64,000 nucleotides of DNA from Candidatus Poseidoniia archaeon (lineage in GTDB: Archaea > Thermoplasmatota > Poseidoniia > MGIII > CG-Epi1): assembly GCA_030754655.1 (NCBI GenBank), contig JASLZX010000001.1, forward strand, positions 91,059 through 155,058, written 5' to 3'. A model generated the notes under the pieces. The model saw only the letters and a program-made list of their open reading frames with translations, was not told the DNA's origin and ran no database searches. Positions within the stretch are counted from its first letter, which is position 1; every line of letters begins with the position of its first letter. Below, piece after piece: positions 581 through 23,011 of the stretch. The position numbers were made by a program, and so were the translations under genes.

Positions 581-1062
581 GGCAATTCCGCCGGCGCCGC
601 GAAGGCGCGACCGATTACCGCAAGCGGCTGGCGCTGCTCAAGTCGGGAGAGGCACGCGCAGTCGTGCGCGTCACCAACCGGCAGGTGCTCATCCAACTAA
701 TCCGCTTCGCGAAACAGGGCGATGAGGTTGTCACCGCGGTCAGCTCGCAGCAACTGGGTGTGCTGGGCTGGAAAGGCTCCGGCACCAGCATCCCTGCTGC
801 CTACCTGTCGGGGCTGCTCGCAGCGCGCAACGCGCAAGCTGCGGGCGAGACGCGAGCGGTGCTCGACATCGGTCGCGTCACCCCCACCCAGGGTGGTCGC
901 GTCTTCGCGGTGCTCAAGGGGCTAGTCGATGGCGGACTCGAAGTCCCACACTCAGATACCCTTTACCCGGGTGAAGAACGCATCCGCGGCGAACACATTT
1001 CCAAGGCGACAGTCAAACAGGTCGAGAAGGTCTCTGCCGCTATCAAGGAGGCGAAGGCGTGA
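577..1062 (+). CDS. rpl18: 50S ribosomal protein L18 (L18p/L5e)
   Basis: Protein VRQFRRRREGATDYRKRLALLKSGEARAVVRVTNRQVLIQLI... matches L18. Likely GTG start at 577 overlapping the L19e stop. The track ORF 406..1062 is an in-frame upstream extension inside L19e. Confidence 0.8.
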   Translation: MRQFRRRREGATDYRKRLALLKSGEARAVVRVTNRQVLIQLIRFAKQGDEVVTAVSSQQLGVLGWKGSGTSIPAAYLSGLLAARNAQAAGETRAVLDIGRVTPTQGGRVFAVLKGLVDGGLEVPHSDTLYPGEERIRGEHISKATVKQVEKVSAAIKEAKA

Positions 1063-1886
1063 GCCCGCCACCGGTGCGCAGGACCAGCACCAGCCCGCCA
1101 CCGCGTGGCGGCCCCCAGGCTGGCAGCCCACCTCGCGGTGGACCCCAGCGCGGCGGCCCCCCCCGTCGGGGCGGACCGCCGCGTGACCGCGGACCGCGGT
1201 TGACGCCGGCACAGCAGCGCCGCAAGGCGGCTTCCGAGCGCGCCGACACGTGGAAGCCGAAGACTGAGCTGGGGCGCAAGGTCATAGCCGGTGAGATTAC
1301 TACGATTCACGAGGCGCTGACGACGGGCCTGCCACTGCGCGAGCCCGAAATCGTCGATATCCTGCTGCCCGACCTGAAAGAGGAAGTTATCGACATTCAC
1401 ATGGTCCAGCGCATGTCCGATTCGGGGCGCAGGGTGCGCTTCGCCGTTACGACCATGGTCGGCAACGGTGACGGCTGCGTCGGGCTGGGTCGTGTCTCGG
1501 GTAAGCTGGTGCGGCCGACCATCCAGAAATCCATGGACCGCGCCAAGCAGAACCTGATTGAAATCCGGCGCGGCAGCGGTTCCTGGGAGTGCTCGACCGT
1601 GGTGCCGAACTCGCTGCCCTTTACCGTCGCAGGACGCACTGGCTCGACGCGCGTGACGCTCAAGCCGGCGCCGCCCGGCGTAGGGTTGGTGACCAACGAC
1701 GTCGGGCGCATCATGCTCCGCATGGCAGGCGTTCAGGACATCTGGTCGTTCAGCAAGGGGCAAACGCAGACCATCTACAATTACGCCAGTGCGATGTTCA
1801 AGGCGCTCGAGAAGACCGCCAGCACGAAGCTGCTGCCGGGCCAGGAAGAGGCGCACAACATGCTACTGGGGGCGGCGCCCGCATGA
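1059..1886 (+). CDS. rps5: 30S ribosomal protein S5 (uS5) with an unusual N-terminal RGG/Pro-rich extension
   Basis: C-terminal 200 aa is canonical S5 (…GRRVRFAVTTMVGNGDGCVGLG…GRIMLRMAGVQDIW…). The N-terminal 60 aa (PPPRGGPQAGSPPRGGPQRGGPPRRGGPPRDRGPR) is a low-complexity repeat. ATG 1059 overlaps the L18 stop. Confidence 0.9.
   Translation: MSPPPVRRTSTSPPPRGGPQAGSPPRGGPQRGGPPRRGGPPRDRGPRLTPAQQRRKAASERADTWKPKTELGRKVIAGEITTIHEALTTGLPLREPEIVDILLPDLKEEVIDIHMVQRMSDSGRRVRFAVTTMVGNGDGCVGLGRVSGKLVRPTIQKSMDRAKQNLIEIRRGSGSWECSTVVPNSLPFTVAGRTGSTRVTLKPAPPGVGLVTNDVGRIMLRMAGVQDIWSFSKGQTQTIYNYASAMFKALEKTASTKLLPGQEEAHNMLLGAAPA
1090..1200 (+). repeat. Degenerate tandem repeat encoding the P-R-G-G-P-Q/P repeats of the uS5 N-terminal extension
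   Basis: ccaccgcgtggcggcccccaggctggcagcccacctcgcggtggaccccagcgcggcggccccccccgtcggggcggaccgccgcgtgaccgcggaccg. Confidence 0.6.
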
Positions 1887-2356
1887 CCTGGGCCGTCGTC
1901 CGCGTGCGCGGGCCGATTAACGTCAAGCCCAAGGCGCGCGAAACAATGCGGCTGCTGCGACTGAACCGGGTCAACCACTGCGTGATGGTCCCTGAAGACG
2001 CCACCCATCTTGGGATGCTGCGGCAAGTGAAGGATTACGTCACCTGGGGCGAAGCCGACGCCGAGACCGCCGAGCTGCTGCTGGGCGACGCCGGAATGCT
2101 GGGCGGGCGCAAGCCGCTCGGCAAGGCGGCGCTCAAGGAGGGCGGCTTCACAACGGTGAAAGCGTTCGCGAAGAAAGTGGCTGCCGGCAAGGCGCGGCTG
2201 CGCGACGTTCCGGGCCTGAAACCGGTGCTGCGGCTCCATCCGCCCCGCAAGGGGTGGGAGGGCATCAAGCGCTCTTTCACCGAAGGCGGCGCGCTGGGCT
2301 ACCGCGGCGACGCCATCAACGCCCTGTTGAGGAGGATGACTCGTGGCGATGCGTAA
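1883..2356 (+). CDS. rpl30: 50S ribosomal protein L30 (uL30)
   Basis: MTWAVVRVRGPINVKPKARETMRLLRLNRVNHCVMV… is typical L30. ATG 1883 overlaps the S5 stop (ATGA). The track ORF 1589..2356 is an upstream extension. Confidence 0.85.
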   Translation: MTWAVVRVRGPINVKPKARETMRLLRLNRVNHCVMVPEDATHLGMLRQVKDYVTWGEADAETAELLLGDAGMLGGRKPLGKAALKEGGFTTVKAFAKKVAAGKARLRDVPGLKPVLRLHPPRKGWEGIKRSFTEGGALGYRGDAINALLRRMTRGDA

Positions 2357-2762
2357 GTCCATGCGACGCGGCCGCACCCGCGGACGCGGCCACAAGAAAG
2401 GGCGTGGCGCCGGCCTGCGTGGTGGGCGCGGCAACGCTGGCTCGCACAAGACCAAGCGGGTGATGTACGAGCGCGTCGGACGCGTCTGGGGCCGTTCCGG
2501 CTTCACACGGCCGCCGGCGGTCGTCGCCGCCAGCGCAGTGCTGAACCTGAAACTGCTCGAAGAATCGCTCGACCGCTGGGTCACCGACGGCAGCGCGACA
2601 CAGAAAGGGAAACAGATCTCCGTCAACTTGGGGCCACTGGGCTTCGACAAACTGCTCTCGACCGGCGACCTGAGCCACCCCTGCACGATTACCGTAAGCG
2701 CTGCCTCCGCCCGCGCCATCCAGAAGGTGGAAGCTGCTGGTGGAGAGGTGCAGCTTGGCTGA
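2343..2762 (+). CDS. rpl15: 50S ribosomal protein L15 (uL15)
   Basis: MAMRKSMRRGRTRGRGHKKGRGAGLRGGRGNAGSHKTKR… is a Gly/Arg-rich L15 N-terminus. The start overlaps the L30 end. Confidence 0.85.
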   Translation: MAMRKSMRRGRTRGRGHKKGRGAGLRGGRGNAGSHKTKRVMYERVGRVWGRSGFTRPPAVVAASAVLNLKLLEESLDRWVTDGSATQKGKQISVNLGPLGFDKLLSTGDLSHPCTITVSAASARAIQKVEAAGGEVQLG

Positions 2763-2910
2763 TTCGATACCGCGCGAGCCGTCGAGGGCCTTCGGCCCCT
2801 GTATCGCGGTAATCCTGTTCTACTTGCTCTGGTTCCGCTGGAAGGACCCCAGCACTGAGGCGACACTGCTGATGGGGGGGGGCGTGGCCATCCTGACCTG
2901 GCTCACCTAC

Positions 2911-4473
2911 ATGGCCTCCTCGTATTCTGGCGAAGGGTCGAAGCTGCACGGGCTGGCGCCGATTATCGAGCGCATGCCGAGCATCACCAAGCCGGACGGC
3001 CACGTCCATTTCCGGACCAAGATGACCTGGACGCTTGGCATCCTGATTCTCTACTTCGCGCTGACCAACGTCACGATGTACGGCCTCGGCAGCGACACCG
3101 TCGACCTGTTCGTTCAGTACCGCGCCATCCTTGCCGGGGCATCGGGGAGCCTGATGCATCTCGGTATCGGGCCAATCGTAACCGGCTCGATTATCATGCA
3201 GCTTTTCACCGGCGCCAAGATTATCAACCTCAACCTGCAGGACGCCAAGGACAAGGCGATCTACCAGGGCACCCAGAAGGTGCTGGTAGTGGTGATGATT
3301 TTCGTCGAATCCATCCCGCAGGTCTTCGGCTTCCTCGAACCCAGCGCAACCGTCGTCGGCGAGCTCGGGCTGACGTGGGCCCGCATGGCAATTATCACTC
3401 AGCTGATTATCGGCTCGTATCTTGTGTTCCTGATGGACGAGGTTGTCTCCAAATGGGGCATCGGCAGCGGCATTTCCCTCTTCATCGCCGCTGGTGTCAG
3501 CCAGGCGCTCTTCACCGGCACCCTCAACTGGGAGCCGGCGCCCGGGACGACCGACCCCAACTCGCCGCCGACCGGGACCATCCCGATGGTTATTTGGTAC
3601 ATCATGAACTCCTCATCGCGCGAGCTGATGCAGGGGGGCTACGAGGCGATGCTGTTGGCACCGCCCAATCCGGTCGTCGCGCTGGTCGGGACACTCGTCG
3701 TGTTCTTCGTCGTGGTGTATGTCGAGTCGTCGCGCATCGAACTGCCGCTGGCACACGGACGCGTCCGCGGCGCGCGCGGACGCTACCCCATCCGGCTGAT
3801 TTACGCCAGCAACATCCCAGTCATCCTGATGGCGGCGCTGCTCGCCAACGTCAACATGTTCGCGATGCTATTCTGGTCGCACCCGACGATGTCCAAATGG
3901 CCGATTATCGGGCATAACTGGATGATCGGCGCTTTCGACGTCAGCCAAGGCAACCCGGTCCCGACCATGGGTGCTGCCTACTACCTCAACCGTATCAACG
4001 GCATGCAGGACTGGTTCCTGCCGCTGGCGAGCCCCAAATACGAGAGCTACATGATTATTGGTGGCGTGAGCCACGAGCCATACCAGCTGGTGTTGCATAT
4101 TATCGTCTACATGGGCGTTATGATTCTGGGCTCAATGATGTTCGCTAAGTTCTGGATTGAAACTACTAACATGGGGCCACAAGCGGTCGCCAAACAAATT
4201 CAGGGCTCGGGGATGCAGATTCCTGGCTTCCGGCGCGACCCGCGCATCGTCGAGAAGGTGCTTGAGCGGTACATCCCGACGGTGACTGTCTTCAGTGGCG
4301 CAATAGTGGGACTGCTCGCTGCGGGGGCAGACATGGTCGGCACCACCGGGCAATCGTCCGGAACAGGGGTATTGCTGACTGTTGGCATCATGATACGCAT
4401 GTACGAACAAATCGGCAAGGAGCAGATGATGGAAATGCATCCGGTCCTGCGACAGTTTTTCGGCGAGGAGTGA
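2911..4473 (+). CDS. secY: Preprotein translocase subunit SecY
   Basis: Ten-TM protein with the archaeal SecY N-terminus (MASSYSGEGSKLHGLAPIIERMPSITKPDGHVHFRTKMTWT…). The track ORF begins at 2740. I prefer the ATG at 2911 by alignment to archaeal SecY N-termini; 2872 is an alternative. Confidence 0.85.
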   Translation: MASSYSGEGSKLHGLAPIIERMPSITKPDGHVHFRTKMTWTLGILILYFALTNVTMYGLGSDTVDLFVQYRAILAGASGSLMHLGIGPIVTGSIIMQLFTGAKIINLNLQDAKDKAIYQGTQKVLVVVMIFVESIPQVFGFLEPSATVVGELGLTWARMAIITQLIIGSYLVFLMDEVVSKWGIGSGISLFIAAGVSQALFTGTLNWEPAPGTTDPNSPPTGTIPMVIWYIMNSSSRELMQGGYEAMLLAPPNPVVALVGTLVVFFVVVYVESSRIELPLAHGRVRGARGRYPIRLIYASNIPVILMAALLANVNMFAMLFWSHPTMSKWPIIGHNWMIGAFDVSQGNPVPTMGAAYYLNRINGMQDWFLPLASPKYESYMIIGGVSHEPYQLVLHIIVYMGVMILGSMMFAKFWIETTNMGPQAVAKQIQGSGMQIPGFRRDPRIVEKVLERYIPTVTVFSGAIVGLLAAGADMVGTTGQSSGTGVLLTVGIMIRMYEQIGKEQMMEMHPVLRQFFGEE

Positions 4474-5102
4474 TGGCGCGCGTCATCGGCGGCTCGACCA
4501 TCGGTGAGGGCTGCTTTCTGGACCGCGACGTCGTCATCGGCTACCCGCCAGGCGACGAACTGCCTCTGCTCGGCAGCGACCGTGAAGCGGAAATCACGGG
4601 CGCGGCCGTCGGCGACAACTGCACGCTACGAGCCGGGACGCTCTACTCCCGCGCGCGGCTCGGCAGCAGCGTGCGTAGCGGCCACGGCTGGCTGGTGCGC
4701 GAAGACTCAACCGTCGGCAACGGTTGCCTGATTGGGACCGGCGTCACCATCGACAACGACTGCCGTGTCGGCGACCACTGCAGCTTGCAGACCGGCGTCT
4801 ACATCCCCACCGGCTCGCGCATCGGTGACCGCTGCTTCCTTGGCCCCAACGCGACGCTTACCAACGACCGCACCCCGCTGCGGACCGACTATCGGCTCGA
4901 GGGCGTTACGCTGGGCGACGACGTCACCGTCGGCGCCAATGCGACGCTGATGCCAGGTATCAGCGTCGGCGAAGGTGCGTTCATCGCCGGCGGCGCGGTC
5001 GTTACGCGCGACGTGCCCGTCTGGAAGATGGCGGTCGGCGTCCCGGCGCGGATTGTGGATTTGCCGGAAAACCTGAAGAAGCCCAACCGGCTCGGTGAGT
5101 GA
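4470..5102 (+). CDS. Hexapeptide-repeat (left-handed beta-helix) acyl/acetyltransferase
   Basis: Repeated [LIV]-G-x-x-x-x hexapeptide motifs (VGDNCTLRAG, VGNGCLIGTGVTIDNDCRVGDHCSLQTGVYI, VGANATLMPGISVGEGAFIAGGAVV). Its start overlaps the secY stop (4470/4473) and its stop overlaps the adk start (5099/5102). Confidence 0.7.
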   Translation: MMARVIGGSTIGEGCFLDRDVVIGYPPGDELPLLGSDREAEITGAAVGDNCTLRAGTLYSRARLGSSVRSGHGWLVREDSTVGNGCLIGTGVTIDNDCRVGDHCSLQTGVYIPTGSRIGDRCFLGPNATLTNDRTPLRTDYRLEGVTLGDDVTVGANATLMPGISVGEGAFIAGGAVVTRDVPVWKMAVGVPARIVDLPENLKKPNRLGE

Positions 5103-5635
5103 TGGGCGTCATCGTCGTTACCGGTGTGCCAGGGGTGGGCAAGTCTACTGTCATGGCCGGCGCCGACGAAGCGGGCTACGGTAGTGTCAACTTTGGTGAC
5201 ATGATGTTCGAGGTCGCGCAGGCCGAGGGTGCTGCTGACCGCGACCAGATGCGCAAGCTACCGATAGGTGAGCAGCAACGACTGCAACGCCTGGCGGGCG
5301 AGCGAATTGCCGCGATGGGTGACGTTGTTGTCGACACGCACGCTTCCATCCGCACCGCGCAGGGATTCATGCCGGGCCTGCCCGAGTGGACGCTGCGCGC
5401 GATGGTGCCCACCATTATCGTGCTGGTCGAAGCGACACCGACCGAGATTGCCGGCCGCCGCGCCAAGGATGCAACCCGGCTGCGCGACGCCGACAACGTC
5501 GCGCTGCATCAGGAAGTTAACCGCGCCTTCGCCGCAGCCAGTGCGGTGATGGTCGGCGCGACCGTCGCCATCATCGAGAACCACGATGGAGGGGTTGACG
5601 CGGCGGTTGCGCAGTTCCGGGAGCTACTCGCGTGA
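5099..5635 (+). CDS. adkA: Adenylate kinase, archaeal type
   Basis: MMGVIVVTGVPGVGKSTV… gives a P-loop. Size (178 aa) and position after secY are typical of archaeal AdkA. Confidence 0.8.
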   Translation: MMGVIVVTGVPGVGKSTVMAGADEAGYGSVNFGDMMFEVAQAEGAADRDQMRKLPIGEQQRLQRLAGERIAAMGDVVVDTHASIRTAQGFMPGLPEWTLRAMVPTIIVLVEATPTEIAGRRAKDATRLRDADNVALHQEVNRAFAAASAVMVGATVAIIENHDGGVDAAVAQFRELLA

Positions 5636-6282
5636 GCGAGACGGAGCAGCAGCCCCCGGCAATGGGCGGCATGTTCCTGACCATGTTCCTGATGCTCTAC
5701 ATCATCATCAACCCCGGGCTGCGGGTGACGATGGGCGAGGTGGCCGAGACACTGCTCGAGCCGCGCATCGGCTTCGACGGCGCGTACCCGGCGGTCACGA
5801 TCCTGCTGGCGGGGATGGTGATGATTGGCGGCACCACCGTCATTCGCCACTTGCTGGTCGACTGGCAACAGATGGCTGAGGTGCAACTCAAGATGCAGGC
5901 GTACAACAAGGCACTGAGCGCTGCGCGGAAGGAGGGGCAGCAGGCGCGGGTGCAGAAACTGATGAAAATGCAACCGGAAGTGCTGATGCTCCAGTCGGGG
6001 ATGATGTCCAACCAAATGCGCCCAATGGTTTTCACGATGCTGATTGCAATTCCCATCATCATGTGGCTCTACGAGTTCACGGCGGGACTGCCGGTGCAGG
6101 CGCTCTCGCTACCGTGGGAACCCCATTGGGAATTGCAGGAACGGCTCTGGATCCTGCCGCACTGGATCGTGATCTACTCCGTAATGGCGCTGCCGTTCGG
6201 GCAAATCCTGCTGCGTGGGCTGAAGCTGGCGAGCGCGCTGCCGCAGCTGCGCTTCGGGCAGCTGGAGGCCGAACACGAGTAG
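5632..6282 (+). CDS. DUF106 / EMC3-like Oxa1-superfamily membrane protein
   Basis: Three TM segments plus a coiled middle region (…QMAEVQLKMQAYNKALSAARKEGQQARVQKLMKMQPEVLMLQSGMMSNQMRPM…). The conserved position after adk in archaeal r-protein clusters is established for DUF106. Confidence 0.7.
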   Translation: MSETEQQPPAMGGMFLTMFLMLYIIINPGLRVTMGEVAETLLEPRIGFDGAYPAVTILLAGMVMIGGTTVIRHLLVDWQQMAEVQLKMQAYNKALSAARKEGQQARVQKLMKMQPEVLMLQSGMMSNQMRPMVFTMLIAIPIIMWLYEFTAGLPVQALSLPWEPHWELQERLWILPHWIVIYSVMALPFGQILLRGLKLASALPQLRFGQLEAEHE

Positions 6283-6707: not shown

Positions 6708-7283
6708 TCAACTGGAGATGGAGAGCGAAAGCCGCTCCACCCGCAGGATTTCGCCATCGAAATTCTGCTCGTCGAACCGCTCGCGTTCCCAGCCCTCCGG
6801 CAGCTCGCCCATCAAGCTCGAGAGCAGCAGCCACACCCCACCACCCGGCCGCAGGTGGCGCGGCGCCCCAGTGAGCAGTTGCTGAGTGAACTCGGTGCCA
6901 GTCGGGCCGCCTTCGACCGCCAGCGCCAACCAGCGGTCGTCGTATTCGCCGCCCGGCGGCAGGTAGGGCGGGTTGCAAACAATGGCATCGAAGCGGCGGT
7001 CGCCGACCGGCTCGAACAGGTCGCCTTGCAAGAACTCGATGTGGTGCCCTGCCACCCGGGCGTTCCGCCGCGCCAGCGCGATGGCGTGCGGGTTCAGGTC
7101 GGTCGCGGTGACCACTCCCCCGAGCGCGGCGAGCGTGAGCGCGACGATGCCGCTGCCGGTGCCCAGCTCTAGGACGGCGCCGCGCAGCTCGGGGAAGCGC
7201 GTCGCCGCGCGCTCGAGTGTGGCACAGAGCAGCCAGCTGTCTTCGGCCGGCTCGTAGACGCGGCCGTCCTTGCGAAGGTTCAC
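6708..7283 (-). CDS. HemK/Mtq2-like N5-glutamine (release-factor) methyltransferase
   Basis: SAM-binding motif LELGTGSGIVAL and catalytic NPPY (IVCNPPYLP). 191 aa, typical of archaeal Mtq2-like enzymes. Confidence 0.7.
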   Translation of the reverse strand: MNLRKDGRVYEPAEDSWLLCATLERAATRFPELRGAVLELGTGSGIVALTLAALGGVVTATDLNPHAIALARRNARVAGHHIEFLQGDLFEPVGDRRFDAIVCNPPYLPPGGEYDDRWLALAVEGGPTGTEFTQQLLTGAPRHLRPGGGVWLLLSSLMGELPEGWERERFDEQNFDGEILRVERLSLSISS

Positions 7284-7331: not shown

Positions 7332-8102
7332 ATGGCCTGGAAGAAGGAGAACAAGCCGGCGCAGTTCCTGCTCTCGATTACCGCAGCGCACGGCGACGAC
7401 TGGGCAGCGCTCAAAACTTCGGCCGCCGAACAGGGGCGGCCGGTCAGCGAGCTGGTGCGTGAAGCGATTTCCGACAAGGTCGGCACGGGCGAGCCGCGCC
7501 GCGCGCTGGTGCTGAGCCCGCACACCGACGACGCCGAACTGGGGTGCGGCGGGACCATCGCCAAGCTGGTCGAGCGCGGCTGGTCGGTGCACGTCATCTA
7601 CTTCAGCGCGGTCGCCGAGCGGTATCCCGACCTGGCCGACGAAGCTGCGGCGTCGGGAAAAATCCTAGGCGTCACGCATGAGATCCTTGATTTCTACACC
7701 CGCCAGTTCCCGCGCGACCGGCAGGAAATACTGCAGGCACTCTGCGACCATTCGTGCCTGCGCAGCTACGAACTCGTGTTTACGCCGGCGACGACTGACA
7801 TCCACCAGGACCATGGCGTCGTGACCGCCGAGGCGCTACGCGCCTTCCGGAATTGCACGCTGCTCGGCTACGAGCTGCCGTGGAATAATCTCGAAATCGA
7901 GCTCAACTGCTTCATCTCGCTCGAGGAGCGGCACGTGCGCAAGAAGCTCAAGGCGCTCGACTGCTACGACAGCCAAAAACACAACCCCTACTTCGACCCC
8001 AAGTTCTTCCGTTCCGTAGTCCGCATGCGCGGAGTCCAGCTCGCGGTGCCGTATGCCGAAGGCTTCGAGACGCTGAAGGTGCGGCTGGACGGCATGCTGT
8101 GA
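7332..8102 (+). CDS. LmbE/PIG-L family N-acetylglucosaminyl deacetylase with N-terminal ribbon-helix-helix-like domain
   Basis: LmbE signature ALVLSPHTDDAELGCGGTI plus downstream HQDH. The N-terminal 45 aa (KKENKPAQFLLSITAAHGDDWAALKTSAAEQGRPVSELVREAISDKV) has a strand-helix-helix RHH pattern. A TATA-like tatagttatataa at 7297-7309 sits about 25 nt upstream of ATG 7332, suggesting a leaderless start. Confidence 0.7.
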   Translation: MAWKKENKPAQFLLSITAAHGDDWAALKTSAAEQGRPVSELVREAISDKVGTGEPRRALVLSPHTDDAELGCGGTIAKLVERGWSVHVIYFSAVAERYPDLADEAAASGKILGVTHEILDFYTRQFPRDRQEILQALCDHSCLRSYELVFTPATTDIHQDHGVVTAEALRAFRNCTLLGYELPWNNLEIELNCFISLEERHVRKKLKALDCYDSQKHNPYFDPKFFRSVVRMRGVQLAVPYAEGFETLKVRLDGML

Positions 8103-9247
8103 GCCGGGTCGCGATGCTGCTGGGGCACGACCTGCTCGAGCCGACCGTCGACACCCGCGTCTGGCGCGAGGCGCTCTCGCTCATTGGCGCCGGCTACGAA
8201 GTGACTGTTTTCTGCTGGGCGCGGCGCGACGATTCGCTGCCGGCCGAGGAAATCCGTGACGGCGTCCGCGTGCGCCGCATCTTCGCGTCGCTCGACAGCT
8301 GGCTGCCGGGGCGCATGTTGGCGTTCCGCAGTGCGATGCGGCAACTGGCCGAGGCGGCCGCCGATGAGCTGCCGGCGGTGGTGCACGCGCATGATCTGGA
8401 GACGCTGCCGGCCGCCTGCCGGGCGGCCGACGCGTGCGACGCGAGAGTCGTCTTCGACGCGCACGAGGACTGGCCGCTGCTCGAGTGGGTGCAGGGGGCG
8501 GCGCTCGGCGCCTGGTTCGGCTGGCAGCAGCGCCGCTGGCTGCCGCGCGCCGATACGGTCGTGACCGTCTCGCCCGAGCTGGCGAAGCGGCTCGGCGGGG
8601 CGGAGGTGCTCTACAACTCCGAGCCGCTGGCGGTCGTCGAGGCGGCCGCGAGAGAGGACTTGCGCGCGAAACTGGGGCTTGGCGGAGTCGTCGCAGGCTA
8701 CATCGGCGCGCTGCGGCGGCGGATTATCGAGCAGTTGCTCGACGACGCCGCGCAAGTCCCGGAGGTTACGCTACTGGTCGTCGGCGGCCCGCCGAAGGGG
8801 CGCGCCGGCTACGCCGGGCTGCAGGAGCAGCTCGAGACGTATGCCACCAAAGTTGGTGCGCGGGCGGTCTTCACCGGCCCGCTGGCGTACGACCGCATGG
8901 GCGACTGCTACCGCGCTTGCGACCTGCTGCTGGTCGGCCACTATGTTGCCGAGCCGTTGCGGCACGCCGCCGTCCCGAAGAAGCTACTCGACGCGATGGC
9001 CTACTCAATCCCGGCCGTGGTCGGCCCCTACGAAGCGCGCCGCTCCATCGTCGAGCGCCACCGCTGCGGGCTGGTCGCCGACGACTGGCTGGCGCCGCTG
9101 CGCAAACTGGCGGGCGACGGCGAGCAGCGGCGCGAAATGGGCCTGCGCGGGACCGCCGCATGGCGCGAAAAATACTGCTGGGACCACATGGAAGAGCGAC
9201 TGCTGGCGCTCTACGCGGGGCTGCTGGCAACAGCGGAGGTGCCGTGA
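8099..9247 (+). CDS. GT4-family glycosyltransferase (GT-B fold)
   Basis: 382 aa with typical GT4 C-terminal features (…EPLRHAAVPKKLLDAMAYSIPAVVGP…GLVADD…). The GTG start overlaps the LmbE stop. Confidence 0.7.
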   Translation: MSRVAMLLGHDLLEPTVDTRVWREALSLIGAGYEVTVFCWARRDDSLPAEEIRDGVRVRRIFASLDSWLPGRMLAFRSAMRQLAEAAADELPAVVHAHDLETLPAACRAADACDARVVFDAHEDWPLLEWVQGAALGAWFGWQQRRWLPRADTVVTVSPELAKRLGGAEVLYNSEPLAVVEAAAREDLRAKLGLGGVVAGYIGALRRRIIEQLLDDAAQVPEVTLLVVGGPPKGRAGYAGLQEQLETYATKVGARAVFTGPLAYDRMGDCYRACDLLLVGHYVAEPLRHAAVPKKLLDAMAYSIPAVVGPYEARRSIVERHRCGLVADDWLAPLRKLAGDGEQRREMGLRGTAAWREKYCWDHMEERLLALYAGLLATAEVP

Positions 9248-9273: not shown

Positions 9274-10284
9274 ATGCGGATCCTGCTGACTGGCGTCGGC
9301 TGCCCCGGCGCGCACGCACTCATCACCAGCCTGAAACGGCAGTCGCCCGAATTGTGGATTGCTGGCACCGACGCTTCCCCTCAAGCGATTGGCCGCTGGC
9401 TCTGCGACGACTTCGCGCAGGTACCATGGGCACACGACGAGGGATACGTTGACGCTGTCGTTGAGCTGGCGCAGCGCTGGGAGGTTGAGGTGGTGTTCCC
9501 GCAGACGTCATGGGAGATGTTCGAGCTTTCCAAGGCAGCAGACCACTTCGAGGGTGTGGCGACGCTGCTGGCGTCGCCACACGAACAGGTCGCCGCGTGC
9601 GAGGACAAATTCGCGATGTATGACGCCCTGAAGGGCAAAATGGAACTGCCGCGCTACGGGCTGGTCCATTCACTAGCGGAGCTCGAGGCGACCGCCGCGG
9701 CGCTGGGCTACCCGGAACGCGACGTTGTCTTCAAGCCGCCGCGCGGCAAGGGTTCGCGCGGCGTGCGAGTGCTGACCGAGCATGCCGACCGCTACGAGCT
9801 GCTCTTCGAGGAGCGGCCGTTCGCACGCTACATCTCGCTGCAGGAATTGCGCACGACCGTTGGCGACCGCGAAATCCCGCCGCTGCTGGTAATGGAATAC
9901 CTCGAGGGTGAGGAGCATAAGATTGACCCTCTAGCGCGTGGCGGGGAGGTGCTGCTCGGGACCGTGAAACGGCGGCTCAACTACGCTTCGGGCCTGGCAA
10001 TGGGGTTCGAGATTATCGAGGCGCCGGAGCTGCTCGCGTATGGCGCCGAGGTGCTGCGCCATATCCCACTCGACTGGTGCGTCGACATCTCCACTCGCGG
10101 CGGGGTGCTAATGGAAATTAACCCGCGCGTCTCGACTTTTATCTACTCCGAAAACTGGTGCCCGCCCTGGCTGGCGCTACAGCTCGCGACCGGCCGTATC
10201 AGTGCTGACGAGGTGTGTGCGCGGCAGTCTGATGCGCCGGTCGGGACGCGCATGTTCCGCTACTACTGCCAGCAAGAATTCTGA
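9274..10284 (+). CDS. ATP-grasp domain ligase
   Basis: MRILLTGVGCPGAHALI… pre-ATP-grasp region followed by an ATP-grasp core (…DVVFKPPRGKGSRGVRVL…LLVMEYLEGEEHKIDPLARGGEV…MEINPRVS). The track ORF 8434..10284 is an out-of-frame upstream extension across the GT4 gene. GTG 9244 is an alternative start. Confidence 0.65.
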   Translation: MRILLTGVGCPGAHALITSLKRQSPELWIAGTDASPQAIGRWLCDDFAQVPWAHDEGYVDAVVELAQRWEVEVVFPQTSWEMFELSKAADHFEGVATLLASPHEQVAACEDKFAMYDALKGKMELPRYGLVHSLAELEATAAALGYPERDVVFKPPRGKGSRGVRVLTEHADRYELLFEERPFARYISLQELRTTVGDREIPPLLVMEYLEGEEHKIDPLARGGEVLLGTVKRRLNYASGLAMGFEIIEAPELLAYGAEVLRHIPLDWCVDISTRGGVLMEINPRVSTFIYSENWCPPWLALQLATGRISADEVCARQSDAPVGTRMFRYYCQQEF

Positions 10285-20555: not shown

Positions 20556-21503
20556 TCATGCCACCCGGAATTTGTTGAACGCTGGCTGGTAGGTCAACCC
20601 CTGGTCGTTGAGCGAGTCGATGACCTCGTCGAGGCGCGAGCCGTCGATGCCGGCCGCCGCTGCGGAATCGCGCAGCGTCTCGTAGATTACGCCTTCTCCA
20701 TCGCCTTCCTTGTCGAGCGAGCCTATGAGTTCGAGCACGGCCGCCTCGGCGTCCGCGTCGCCTTCCGGCTCCCCGTCAGGCGCTGCGGCAGGCGTTTCAT
20801 TGCCTACAGGGGTGTCCTGCTCCGCTATGGGCGCAGGCGCTTCCGGTGCCACCGGAGCCGCTTCCACGTTGCTAGCGGTCTCGAACTCGCCGGTGAACTG
20901 CGCCGTGCTCGGCGCAGTCGTGTCGCCGCTGAGATTCCGCAGGCAGTCGTAGAGCAGTCCGGCGTAGGATTCGGTCGATACCGTCTCGTATTTTTCCTGC
21001 GCCAGGCCGAGCCCTTCCTTTTCGCGGTTGCTCAGCTCGGCATCGTCGCCCTTCAGGCGGCGCATCAGTGATTCGCACGCCTTGATGGCCCAGACCGAGA
21101 CTTCCTGCTCGCTGACCGCGCGCACGTTCTCGGGCTGGACGCTGACGTAGACCGAGTCGCTGTCGTCAGGCGAATAGGCACGCACCCTCCCGACGGAGAT
21201 TACGTGCGTGGGCGTCTCGATTTTGGAGAGCGCCGCAGCGCCTTCGGGATTGTACTGCCCGGCGCGCAGGTAGTAGGTGTCGCCGTGTGGGTCAACCATG
21301 CGCGCCATGTAGAACGGATCCGTCTCGCTGCCGCGGTTCTCGACATCGGTCAGAATGCCGCCGATGAGCACGCGCGAGAGCTTGGAGCCCATCTCCGAAA
21401 TCAGGTAGGTGGGCGAATACTCGCGGTCCTCGACATGCGTCTCGTGAGCGCGCGAAAGCTCCTGCGCCAGTACCGGAAGGGCCGGTTCCCTGCGACGCGC
21501 CAT
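20556..21503 (-). CDS. RPA-associated OB-fold protein (RPA32/RPAP-like) with C-terminal winged-helix-like tail
   Basis: N-terminal OB-fold region (…RVLIGGILTDVENRGSETDPFYMARMVDPHGDTYYLRAG…), an acidic linker and a C-terminal …IYETLRDSAAAAGIDGSRLDEVIDSLNDQGLTYQP. Directly downstream of rpa1 on the same strand. Confidence 0.5.
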   Translation of the reverse strand: MARRREPALPVLAQELSRAHETHVEDREYSPTYLISEMGSKLSRVLIGGILTDVENRGSETDPFYMARMVDPHGDTYYLRAGQYNPEGAAALSKIETPTHVISVGRVRAYSPDDSDSVYVSVQPENVRAVSEQEVSVWAIKACESLMRRLKGDDAELSNREKEGLGLAQEKYETVSTESYAGLLYDCLRNLSGDTTAPSTAQFTGEFETASNVEAAPVAPEAPAPIAEQDTPVGNETPAAAPDGEPEGDADAEAAVLELIGSLDKEGDGEGVIYETLRDSAAAAGIDGSRLDEVIDSLNDQGLTYQPAFNKFRVA

Positions 21504-22838
21504 TCAGGCCTCCAGCGCCGCCAGGAATTGCTTGGCGACAGAGGGCACGTCAAGGTTGTGTGCTGGCCGGCACTTGTGCGCGAAGAACATCAGGCCGTAG
21601 TCGTCGGAGCGTGTGTACCCCTCCACCGTCAGTGGCTTGAGCAGAAGTGCCTGCTCCAGTTCTTCGGTCAGCGCCTCAGCGGAGTAGTTCTCGCGCACCA
21701 GCTCGAGGCACGAATCGAGGTCGCGCCCCAGCACCTTCTCGGTCAGCTCGCGGTTCAGGAATAACTGTAGTGAACCGGTGCCGTCGTCGAAGAGCAGCTT
21801 GGTCCGCAGGTCGGGCGGTCCCTCCTGCTCGCCGTGCACCATGCACTGCCGGCTGCGGAGCACGCGGTTGCACTCGGGGCAGCGGAAAATCAGCCCGCTG
21901 CCCTCGCGCACTGCCAACACGTGCCCCTCCAGGAGCGCGTCGCTAGCGCCGCCGCGCTCGTCGAGCAGGTCGATAGTGTAGCTGGTCCCCACCGCCAGTT
22001 CTTCCAGCGACGGGAGTTCGGCGTCGACCGCGCCCACTACGGTGTTTTCGTTGATTTGCAGCTCGGGGATGCCCTGCCACTCGCGCACGTAGGCGTTGCC
22101 GATTTCGTAGATGGTATCGGCCTGTAGTTTGTGGTCGTGCCAGGCGGTGAAGCGGCAGCTACCGCTGGCGTCTGCCAGCGTTCCGCTCCAGAGCGCTTTC
22201 GGCTCGCCGCGCACGGTCACCTCGCGCTCCTGCACATCCAGGATGCGCACGGTCAGTGTGACCGAGCCCATACCGTTCCGTAGTCCCGCAACGTCGCTCG
22301 CGGAGCCGGCGGTCGGACTGCCGGCCGCCGGCACATCCAGCGCCGCCAGAGCCTCGTCCTCGACCTCCCGCACCCGGCAGCGATCGCCCAGATTCAGGTC
22401 GACGCGGTCTTTCCACCCCTTGGAATAGGCGTTGGTGACCTCGAGGATCGTCCCCGGCTCGGCCGTGAACTCGTCACGCCAGACGGTGAAGCGCAGGGTA
22501 GCGCTGCCGTCGGCGATTTCCCCCTCGAAAATGGTCTTCTGCGAGCCATCCTTCAGATTGATTTCCTTCGAGAACACAGACACGATCTTCGCGCGGAAGC
22601 TGACCGATGCCTCGTCCGCTTTGATGTTAGCCAGCGGCATGAATGCGCTGGCCTGCAACGTGCGGGGGTCGCCATAGTGCTTCCGGACAATCGCCTCCTT
22701 GGCGGTTGCCAGATCGATGCCGTAGTTCTCCACGTATTGCCTCAGTTCTTCGACAATCGTGGCTTCGTCCAGTTTGTTTTCCAGGGCCTCTGCAATGTCC
22801 TTGACATGCGGGCCAAAGTCGGTTTCGTTTGCTTGCAT
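21504..22838 (-). CDS. rpa1: Replication protein A large subunit (multi-OB-fold ssDNA-binding protein with Zn ribbon)
   Basis: Several OB folds (…ATLRFTVWRDEF…, …CRFTAWHDH…) and a Zn ribbon (CPECNRVLRSRQCMVHG). I take the start at Met16 (MQANETDFGP). The track ORF extends to 22883 from a TTG. Confidence 0.75.
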   Translation of the reverse strand: MQANETDFGPHVKDIAEALENKLDEATIVEELRQYVENYGIDLATAKEAIVRKHYGDPRTLQASAFMPLANIKADEASVSFRAKIVSVFSKEINLKDGSQKTIFEGEIADGSATLRFTVWRDEFTAEPGTILEVTNAYSKGWKDRVDLNLGDRCRVREVEDEALAALDVPAAGSPTAGSASDVAGLRNGMGSVTLTVRILDVQEREVTVRGEPKALWSGTLADASGSCRFTAWHDHKLQADTIYEIGNAYVREWQGIPELQINENTVVGAVDAELPSLEELAVGTSYTIDLLDERGGASDALLEGHVLAVREGSGLIFRCPECNRVLRSRQCMVHGEQEGPPDLRTKLLFDDGTGSLQLFLNRELTEKVLGRDLDSCLELVRENYSAEALTEELEQALLLKPLTVEGYTRSDDYGLMFFAHKCRPAHNLDVPSVAKQFLAALEA

Positions 22839-23011
22839 GGAGTATCTCCTTTGTTTATGCCCCAGGACTCCACCCCGGGACAACCCACATACCCCACTAG
22901 GGGTTATAAACTTAATGGTGATTATGTGATTTACCCTTTTTGGACATTATACTATTATGGGTGAATGGGCGCATCTCAACTGTTATATGGAGGCCAGTCT
23001 CGGCGCAGCCG

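Follow-up and report, generated by a model that had tools for sequence, protein, structure and literature searches.

A conserved left-handed beta-helix acetyltransferase gene at the secY-adk junction of Marine Group II/III archaea, with a probable role in amino-sugar N-acetylation

Organization of the secY-adk locus

We analyzed a 64,000-nucleotide stretch of a Marine Group III (MGIII) genome, hereafter the window (Candidatus Poseidoniia archaeon, contig JASLZX010000001.1), in which a plus-strand open reading frame at 4470..5102 separates secY from adk near the end of the ribosomal-protein (spc) operon. The encoded protein is a hexapeptide-repeat protein with a predicted left-handed beta-helix (LbH) fold, and its closest solved relatives acetylate nucleotide-linked amino sugars. 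It probably serves in the synthesis of a surface glycoconjugate. The LbH gene and its neighbors are as follows.

2343..2762, plus strand: ribosomal protein L15 (uL15); Pfam Ribosomal_L27A, E 1.2e-12; in the same place in all related loci
2740..4473, plus strand: secY, 577 amino acids, with a 57-residue hydrophobic N-terminal extension (2740-2910); Pfam SecY, E 9e-68; NF006341, E 1.7e-101
4473..5102, plus strand: LbH (hexapeptide-repeat) N-acetyltransferase, QdtC/WlbB class, 209 amino acids; assigned from Pfam and PDB matches, an AlphaFold2 (AF2) model and the ratio of nonsynonymous to synonymous substitution rates (dN/dS)
5102..5635 (alternative GTG start 5099), plus strand: archaeal adenylate kinase (adk); NCBIfam NF003122, E 1.3e-61
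5632..6282, plus strand: EMC3/TMCO1-like (DUF106) membrane protein, the last gene of the operon; Pfam PF01956, E 5e-21
6708..7283, minus strand: HemK2/MTQ2-type protein methyltransferase, between the operon and a downstream cassette; NCBIfam TIGR00537, E 2.4e-36, above the cutoff

The LbH protein matched the Pfam families Hexapep (PF00132; E 5.2e-26, 89.7 bits against a cutoff of 27) and Hexapep_2 (PF14602; E 7e-19, 67.7 bits against a cutoff of 27). Its start lies at ATG 4473 in public gene calls and in every homologue, which gives 209 amino acids; GTG 4470 is an alternative start that would give 210. The GC contents at the three codon positions (GC1 0.67, GC2 0.52 and GC3 0.85) resembled those of the neighboring genes. 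Comparison with four MGIII relatives gave a dN/dS of 0.07 to 0.20, which indicates purifying selection and is close to the values for adk (0.085 to 0.17) and DUF106. The neighbor-like codon-position composition and the low dN/dS identify the frame as a selected gene and exclude the spurious GC-rich frame that the initial annotation had considered as a possibility. The gene is thus genuine and strongly conserved.

The public annotation of the metagenome-assembled genome (MAG) already reads "N-acetyltransferase" for this gene. The identical protein was found in 176 blocks of a public collection, on MAG contigs of up to 207 kb; a cluster at 99% is labelled Methanobacteriota / Marine Group archaeon, and a relative at 89% comes from the Marine Group III lineage CG-Bathy2. 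About 100 further clusters, with identities of 57 to 64%, come from marine metagenomes. One homologue of 206 amino acids (P0019), 61% identical and typical of the marine archaeal group, carries the NCBI label "Chloroflexi bacterium", and this label probably reflects a mis-binned archaeal contig.

Enzyme class of the LbH protein

We searched the PDB with the LbH protein, and the top solved relatives were N-acetyltransferases of nucleotide-linked 3-amino sugars, each built almost wholly of beta-helix: QdtC (3FS8, E 3e-28), a Helicobacter pullorum enzyme (7S43, 5e-22), FdtD (4MZU, 6e-22) and WlbB (3MQG, 1e-18). DapH followed at 6e-16. A profile built from 19 family members matched QdtC at 4e-52, the other solved enzymes at about 1e-35 (WlbB at 1e-34) and DapH at 3e-23. 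The motifs TGHxxxxRE and TNDxxP are invariant in the LbH family and align with those of QdtC. Residues N131, D132 and P135 of the LbH protein are invariant or nearly so, and they match TNDPTP in QdtC and TNDKYP or TNDKQP in other solved enzymes; the Asn-Asp-x-x-Pro loop, which projects from the helix, presumably has an active-site role in QdtC. Enzymes of the QdtC/WlbB class are not known to use a general base, a point of background that did not enter the assignment. In the AF2 model (predicted local distance difference test score of 77), two-residue strands recurred every six residues over residues 45-180, strands began at residue 3, and the protein was an all-beta-helix with a single external loop at 133-145. 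The model and the Hexapep matches together bore out the left-handed beta-helix acetyltransferase of the initial annotation.

Class I sugar N-acetyltransferases are bilobal: their N-terminal part is a globular domain of about 90 residues, and they use a histidine in catalysis (PMC9271549). Pfam detected no PglD_N domain in the LbH protein, and the beta-helix begins close to the N-terminus, so that the bilobal, histidine-dependent Class I can be excluded. The best NCBIfam match was nevertheless to the NeuD/PglB/VioB family (TIGR03570; 91.2 bits against a cutoff of 160.8), and it covered only the C-terminal half of the model. Other NCBIfam matches, with E values of 1e-11 to 1e-20, would be the basis for placing the protein among other LbH enzymes that act on small molecules, namely DapH-like or CysE-like enzymes, O-acetyltransferases of the LacA/Maa type or gamma-carbonic anhydrases. 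These matches are as weak as any hexapeptide protein gives, and such a reading is scarcely credible, with all scores far under the cutoffs: 74.2 bits against 231.75 for DapH (TIGR03532), 43.6 against 210.65 for CysE, 47-48 against 314-347 for the Maa/LacA O-acetyltransferases and 44 against 250 for gamma-carbonic anhydrase. The profile search likewise placed DapH far behind QdtC. Among the options that the initial annotation had named, the sugar-nucleotide N-acetyltransferase was the one that fitted, and we assign the protein from its sequence to the QdtC/WlbB class of LbH-only amino-sugar N-acetyltransferases.

The genomic context of relatives is consistent with this assignment. A genome scan with the LbH alignment returned relatives of up to 46% identity, with no Poseidoniia among the matches listed. 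A DegT sugar aminotransferase was present in the locus for 55 of the 80 distant relatives among these matches, usually a few bases after the LbH stop codon, and none of the 80 lay near secY or adk. Furthermore, 22 positions were conserved (at least 85%) in 44 DegT-adjacent relatives, and 21 of them are also kept in 56 Poseidoniia LbH sequences. Archaeal relatives in sugar clusters showed identities of 42 to 51%. The cluster in Thermoplasmata combines LbH with UDP-GlcNAc 2-epimerase, a WecA-type transferase, a family 1 glycosyltransferase (GT1) and UDP-sugar dehydrogenase, and the one in Methanoculleus combines GlmS, LbH, DegT and a family 4 glycosyltransferase (GT4). The latter GT4 is not an orthologue of the GT4 encoded in the window. 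A precedent for such a role in Euryarchaeota is MMP0350, a putative acetyltransferase of Methanococcus maripaludis, which is required for the diacetylated second sugar (glucuronic acid) of the N-glycan and whose deletion reduces the glycan to its first sugar (PMC2952790). The comparison of MMP0350 with the LbH protein concerns their role, not their sequence.

Gene order across archaea

The synteny survey was anchored on an adk alignment rather than on LbH; the alignment was searched against metagenome contigs, and neighboring genes were scored by tblastn. Loci whose Adk was at least 55% identical (about 61) were taken as informative Poseidoniia-like loci, and 59 of these 61 showed the order SecY-LbH-Adk. 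In two Poseidoniia-like loci (L149 and L141), SecY was followed by a 75-nucleotide spacer and Adk, with no LbH between them. SecY and Adk were also directly adjacent in the outgroup loci, with a gap of 34 nucleotides in L151 (Adk about 51% identical) and gaps of 69 to 274 nucleotides in L157-L160 (Adk 42 to 43% identical). In L152-L156 and L162, Adk was present, and no secY was detected upstream within the flank of 1.0 to 4.0 kb. The conserved L15-SecY-Adk(-DUF106) order on which the initial annotation relied was thus seen without the insert in the outgroups L151 and L157-L160, and its view of LbH as an insertion into an otherwise conserved junction agrees with the survey. Whether the insertion is a common and annotated arrangement has a divided answer: it is so within Poseidoniia, but it is limited to this one archaeal class, and its location therefore remains unusual. 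A literature search on Poseidoniales together with secY or glycosylation found no description of the SecY-LbH-Adk arrangement.

The gene order of an MGII-type (Marine Group II) locus, L001, was the same as that of the window: L15, SecY, LbH, Adk, DUF106, a reverse HemK2-type methyltransferase, PIG-L, GT4 and ATP-grasp. Identities between the two loci were 60% for LbH, 66% for Adk, 59% for DUF106, 64% for L15 and 83% for SecY. Low-GC loci (0.34 to 0.48) were taken as MGII, and a high-GC clade (0.58 to 0.66) contains the window. In a quick neighbor-joining tree of SecY and Adk, the low-GC and high-GC loci together formed the LbH-bearing clade, with L149 just outside. The LbH-less lineage, which is epipelagic and Poseidoniia-like, comprises L149, L141 and L170-L172 (SecY cluster P0121, 14 contigs), and the closest other SecY cluster is only 76% identical to P0121. 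Since LbH has diverged in step with its neighbors, the insertion is old, vertically inherited and characteristic of the clade. A recent transfer of the gene was ruled out by GC3 and by divergence, both of which match the neighboring genes.

The initial annotation had proposed, from the location, a ribosome- or translocon-associated modification or a moonlighting role. The LbH protein would then acylate SecY, a ribosomal protein or nascent chains, or would moonlight as a translocon regulator. Such a role could draw on the secY-adk location, which is universal in the LbH-bearing clade and includes a 1-nucleotide overlap with secY, on a conserved basic C-terminal tail of LbH (LKKPNRLG) that is specific to the clade, and on the N-terminal extension of the clade's SecY. 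However, the extension is present in the LbH-less lineage too, so that extension and LbH are not linked, and this basal Poseidoniia-like lineage does without LbH altogether. Among the matches listed, no relative outside Poseidoniia was near secY, adk or ribosomal genes; the relatives lie in sugar clusters, with DegT as the frequent companion noted above, and the closest solved relatives act on nucleotide sugars. Within Poseidoniia, moreover, the genes with which LbH co-varies form a glycan-type cassette and are not translation genes. Protein acetylation in archaea is known from GNAT enzymes, and the known substrates of LbH enzymes are small molecules. These data lend the proposal no support, and we regard it as very improbable.

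Junctions with secY and adk

The two ends of the LbH gene abut the flanking genes as follows.

4465..4475, plus strand: secY/LbH junction, GAGGAGTGATG; Shine-Dalgarno-like GAGGA; secY stop TGA 4471-4473; LbH ATG 4473-4475
5100-5102, plus strand: LbH/adk junction, read from the sequence; LbH stop TGA 5100-5102, overlapping the adk ATG by 1 nucleotide

Both junctions of the window read GAGTGATGG, and with ATG starts the stop/start overlap (TGATG) is 1 nucleotide. The initial annotation had given 4-nucleotide overlaps on both sides; overlaps indeed exist, but a length of 4 would need GTG starts at 4470 and 5099. Across the survey, the secY stop codon overlapped the LbH ATG by exactly 1 nucleotide in 52 of 52 loci (TAATG in 44, TGATG in 8). 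The pattern GG[CT]GAGGAnT[AG]ATG was likewise present at the secY/LbH junction of all 52 LbH-bearing loci, including MGII with 36% GC. The end of secY in the LbH-less L149 shows no GAGGA pattern (GGTAATGAGTGA). The spacing from LbH to adk, on the other hand, varies across loci from -4 to +8 nucleotides. The conserved GAGGA may serve as a Shine-Dalgarno-like re-initiation site for LbH. Together with the invariant overlap, it ties LbH tightly to secY, probably also in translation, which is the coupling that the initial annotation had in mind.

Gene overlaps are common along the entire operon, so coupling to secY says little by itself about the function of LbH. It could be an ordinary nucleotide-sugar N-acetyltransferase with its partners elsewhere in the genome, as WbpD and MMP0350 have, whose position is a neutral accident in a streamlined genome and which has no functional tie to the operon or the cassette. 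The family class, the DegT association of the relatives and the ordinariness of overlaps in this operon would all fit, as would the distance of LbH from the cassette, with three genes in between, one of which is read from the opposite strand. However, the GC-rich GAGGA junction has been kept without exception in AT-rich genomes, which argues for selection on the arrangement, and the presence and absence of LbH and the cassette co-vary perfectly. We consider a purely accidental position unlikely, although it is to be taken seriously.

A co-varying PIG-L/GT4/ATP-grasp cassette

Three further genes sit 1.2 kb downstream of the operon, past the reverse HemK2 gene, at a position conserved in MGII and MGIII.

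7332..8102, plus strand: PIG-L/LmbE-family de-N-acetylase, first cassette gene; Pfam PIG-L, E 5.5e-17; below all NCBIfam cutoffs
8099..9247, plus strand: GT4 glycosyltransferase, second cassette gene; Pfam Glyco_trans_4_4 and Glyco_transf_4, about E 1e-16; no specific family
9274..10284, plus strand: ATP-grasp ligase (ATPgrasp_Ter / PylC_N type), third cassette gene; Pfam; follows GT4 in MGII and MGIII

Among all scorable Poseidoniia-like loci, LbH and PIG-L were both present in 48 and both absent in 5, with no discordant locus. The P0121 lineage shows L15, SecY, Adk, DUF106, HemK2, two unknown genes, aIF5B and RadA in this region. All of these are homologous to genes of the window, and the region is otherwise syntenic, but no LbH, PIG-L, GT4 or ATP-grasp gene was found in this lineage within 10 kb downstream. 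The arrangement SecY-LbH-Adk is thus a simple genomic marker that distinguishes the LbH-bearing MGII/MGIII clade from a related lineage without all four genes.

The cassette corresponds to no curated family. The best NCBIfam matches of its proteins were below cutoff, namely BshB1 for PIG-L (51.7 bits against 182.5) and MshA for GT4 (34.5 bits against 462.5), and both proteins gave only weak matches in the PDB. Homologues of the ATP-grasp ligase outside Poseidoniia (38 to 48% identical) were beside PIG-L and a glycosyltransferase in three of five contexts (L176, 6261-10393; L177, 8001-9667; L179, 8001-9682) and stood alone in two. One of the three, L176, belongs to a glycan cluster of bacterial type that also encodes a flippase, DegT, a PglD-type LbH protein and a phosphoglycosyl transferase; the others are from Bathyarchaeota and a Tara contig. 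In addition, a Salirhabdus cluster contains GT4, PIG-L (41% identical to that of the window), a FemAB-like aminoacyl transferase, a GT4::LbH fusion and DegT. The PIG-L/ATP-grasp unit looks like an uncharacterised but widespread deacetylate-then-ligate module. The cassette may accordingly modify a glycoconjugate by deacetylation of a hexosamine and subsequent re-acylation, and LbH probably belongs to the same pathway.

In one MGIII-like locus (L118, 6558-7730), the cassette GT4 was only 30% identical to that of the window, whereas PIG-L was 81% and LbH 86% identical, which suggests that GT4 was replaced within the cassette.

The cassette product could itself be the acceptor of the acetyl group. 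In such a mycothiol-like sequence, GT4 would add GlcNAc, PIG-L would deacetylate it, the ATP-grasp ligase would amidate the free amine with an amino acid, and LbH would N-acetylate the result, yielding an N-acetyl-aminoacyl-glucosamine conjugate, which could be a small molecule, form the head group of a lipid or serve as a residue in a glycan. The four activities fit these four steps in order, and the four genes are always present together or missing together, in a region whose synteny is otherwise intact. The weak best matches to BshB1 and MshA point in the same direction, as do the Salirhabdus cluster, which unites GT4, PIG-L, a FemAB-like enzyme and a GT4::LbH fusion, the lack of DegT within the window, and residues of LbH that are specific to Poseidoniia. 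However, the BshB1 and MshA scores lie far under their cutoffs, LbH keeps 21 of the 22 positions of the DegT-linked nucleotide-sugar enzymes, and no LbH gene lies near the ATP-grasp/PIG-L pairs of Bathyarchaeota and the Tara contig. The Salirhabdus and L176 clusters also hold DegT, so that a conventional role explains both, and the co-variation amounts to one event. A cassette-derived acceptor is therefore quite improbable in our view. The bolder proposal, in which LbH would be the last enzyme of a Poseidoniia-wide four-gene module that makes this conjugate and would be translationally tied to production of the SecY translocon, is a long shot. The product would be either a small molecule akin to mycothiol or bacillithiol or the conserved head group of a lipid or glycan, and the final step of the module would be deliberately tied to SecY production in the ocean's most abundant planktonic archaea.

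Proposed role of the LbH protein

The explanation that we favor, with a probability of about 60%, is that LbH is an amino-sugar N-acetyltransferase of the QdtC/WlbB class for a surface glycoconjugate, captured in the spc operon, coupled to secY, and a partner of the cassette. It starts from the reality of the gene, its family class and conservation, the structure of the junction and the co-variation with the cassette, all of which the analysis showed. LbH would be a soluble, presumably trimeric enzyme that uses acetyl-CoA and most likely acetylates the amino group of an amino-sugar intermediate. The product would be a conserved cell-surface glycoconjugate, such as an N-glycan, an S-layer glycan or a glycolipid. 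The gene would have been captured between secY and adk at the tail of the operon in the common ancestor of the LbH-bearing MGII and MGIII, and inherited vertically afterwards. It would be expressed and probably co-transcribed with the operon, and ribosomes that terminate on secY would restart on the LbH ATG by means of GAGGA and the 1-nucleotide overlap. The PIG-L deacetylase, GT4 and the ATP-grasp ligase would be its probable pathway partners. Co-expression with SecY may keep the provision of glycan building blocks in step with secretion and growth.

Several observations weigh against this explanation. LbH is only 33% identical to QdtC, over 153 amino acids, and it reaches the curated cutoff of no NCBIfam family. 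Invariant residues specific to Poseidoniia, such as S104 (K or R in the relatives), suggest that its acceptor may differ. The window of 64 kb contains no DegT, dehydratase, oxidoreductase, UDP-GlcNAc 2-epimerase or UDP-sugar dehydrogenase, and relatives of GlmS and of the NTP-transferase were not found in it either; the feature shared by many relatives, DegT and sugar-nucleotide enzymes beside the gene, is thus lacking at the window locus, and the partners that a 3-amino-sugar route would call for were not seen within these 64 kb. Furthermore, the five loci without LbH and PIG-L are one lineage, so that the co-variation of LbH and the cassette represents a single evolutionary event.

Marine Group II/III archaea are abundant and uncultured, and very little is known of their cell envelope. 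Strain-variable glycosylation islands have been described in them; in contrast, LbH and the cassette would mark a conserved core glycoconjugate pathway. LbH represents no new kind of enzyme, and we found no evidence that links acylation to the ribosome or the translocon. The more interesting lead is the co-varying module of four genes and its product.

Other features of the region

The N-terminal extension of SecY precedes the canonical start; the match to the NCBIfam model sets in at residue 71. The extension is kept as protein in MGII, in MGIII and in the LbH-less L149 lineage (39 to 100% identity), and it probably forms one or two additional membrane segments. Public gene calls differ in SecY length, 520 amino acids with the extension cut off versus 577. 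Ribosomal protein S5 also carries an N-terminal extension (window positions 1059-1200), of 47 amino acids, PPRGGP-rich and of low complexity, which was found only in close MGIII relatives and on which public gene calls disagree as well (228 versus 275 amino acids). A fusion of L24 (Pfam Ribosomal_L26) to a SAP DNA/RNA-binding domain was seen at L007 2284-2928 and L170 4042-4674, both upstream of the window region, and occurs in LbH-bearing and LbH-less lineages alike. Two neighboring minus-strand genes, at 20556-21503 (315 amino acids) and 21504-22883 (459 amino acids), had no Pfam match; their products are 45 to 47% identical in the LbH-less lineage, where the genes directly follow HemK2. Rfam and tRNA scans of the window revealed nothing beyond ordinary tRNAs.

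Comparison with known systems

The best solved relative is QdtC, the dTDP-3-amino-3,6-dideoxy-alpha-D-glucose N-acetyltransferase of Thermoanaerobacterium thermosaccharolyticum (PDB 3FS8). It has the same LbH-only architecture and the same TGHxxxxRE and TNDxxP motifs, and it serves in the synthesis of a surface (S-layer) glycan, as proposed here for LbH. However, QdtC is longer, with additional N-terminal turns, and it is encoded beside its aminotransferase in a dedicated glycan cluster, unlike LbH in its ribosomal-protein operon. WlbB/WbpD, the UDP-2-acetamido-3-amino-2,3-dideoxy-glucuronate N-acetyltransferase (PDB 3MQG), belongs to the same structural class but is less similar to LbH than QdtC is and has no TGH..RE motif. 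The genes adjoining archaeal LbH relatives (DegT, GlmS, UDP-sugar dehydrogenase or epimerase) recall the WlbB/WbpD-type context, whereas none of the WlbB/WbpD pathway partner genes is present within the window. The Class I enzymes (PglD, PerB and VioB) share with LbH the beta-helix of the C-terminal half, and their family gave the best NCBIfam match. They N-acetylate nucleotide amino sugars with the help of acetyl-CoA, and the same activity is predicted for LbH. They differ in the N-terminal globular domain, since LbH has no PglD_N and is beta-helical from its N-terminus.

The pathways of mycothiol (MshA-MshB-MshC-MshD) and bacillithiol (BshA-BshB-BshC) follow an order of activities that matches the GT4, PIG-L, ligase and acetyltransferase of the window. 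However, an ATP-grasp ligase stands here in place of MshC or BshC, and an LbH protein in place of a GNAT acetyltransferase. The likeness is one of analogy and does not extend to a thiol product; all family scores fall well short of the cutoffs. The operon itself retains the flanking genes, order and tight packing of the canonical archaeal spc-operon tail (L30-L15-SecY-Adk-DUF106). Where secY and adk are separated elsewhere by a gap of 34 to 274 nucleotides (L151, L157-L160) or 75 nucleotides (L149, L141, L170-L172), MGII and MGIII have a 0.63-kb acetyltransferase gene.

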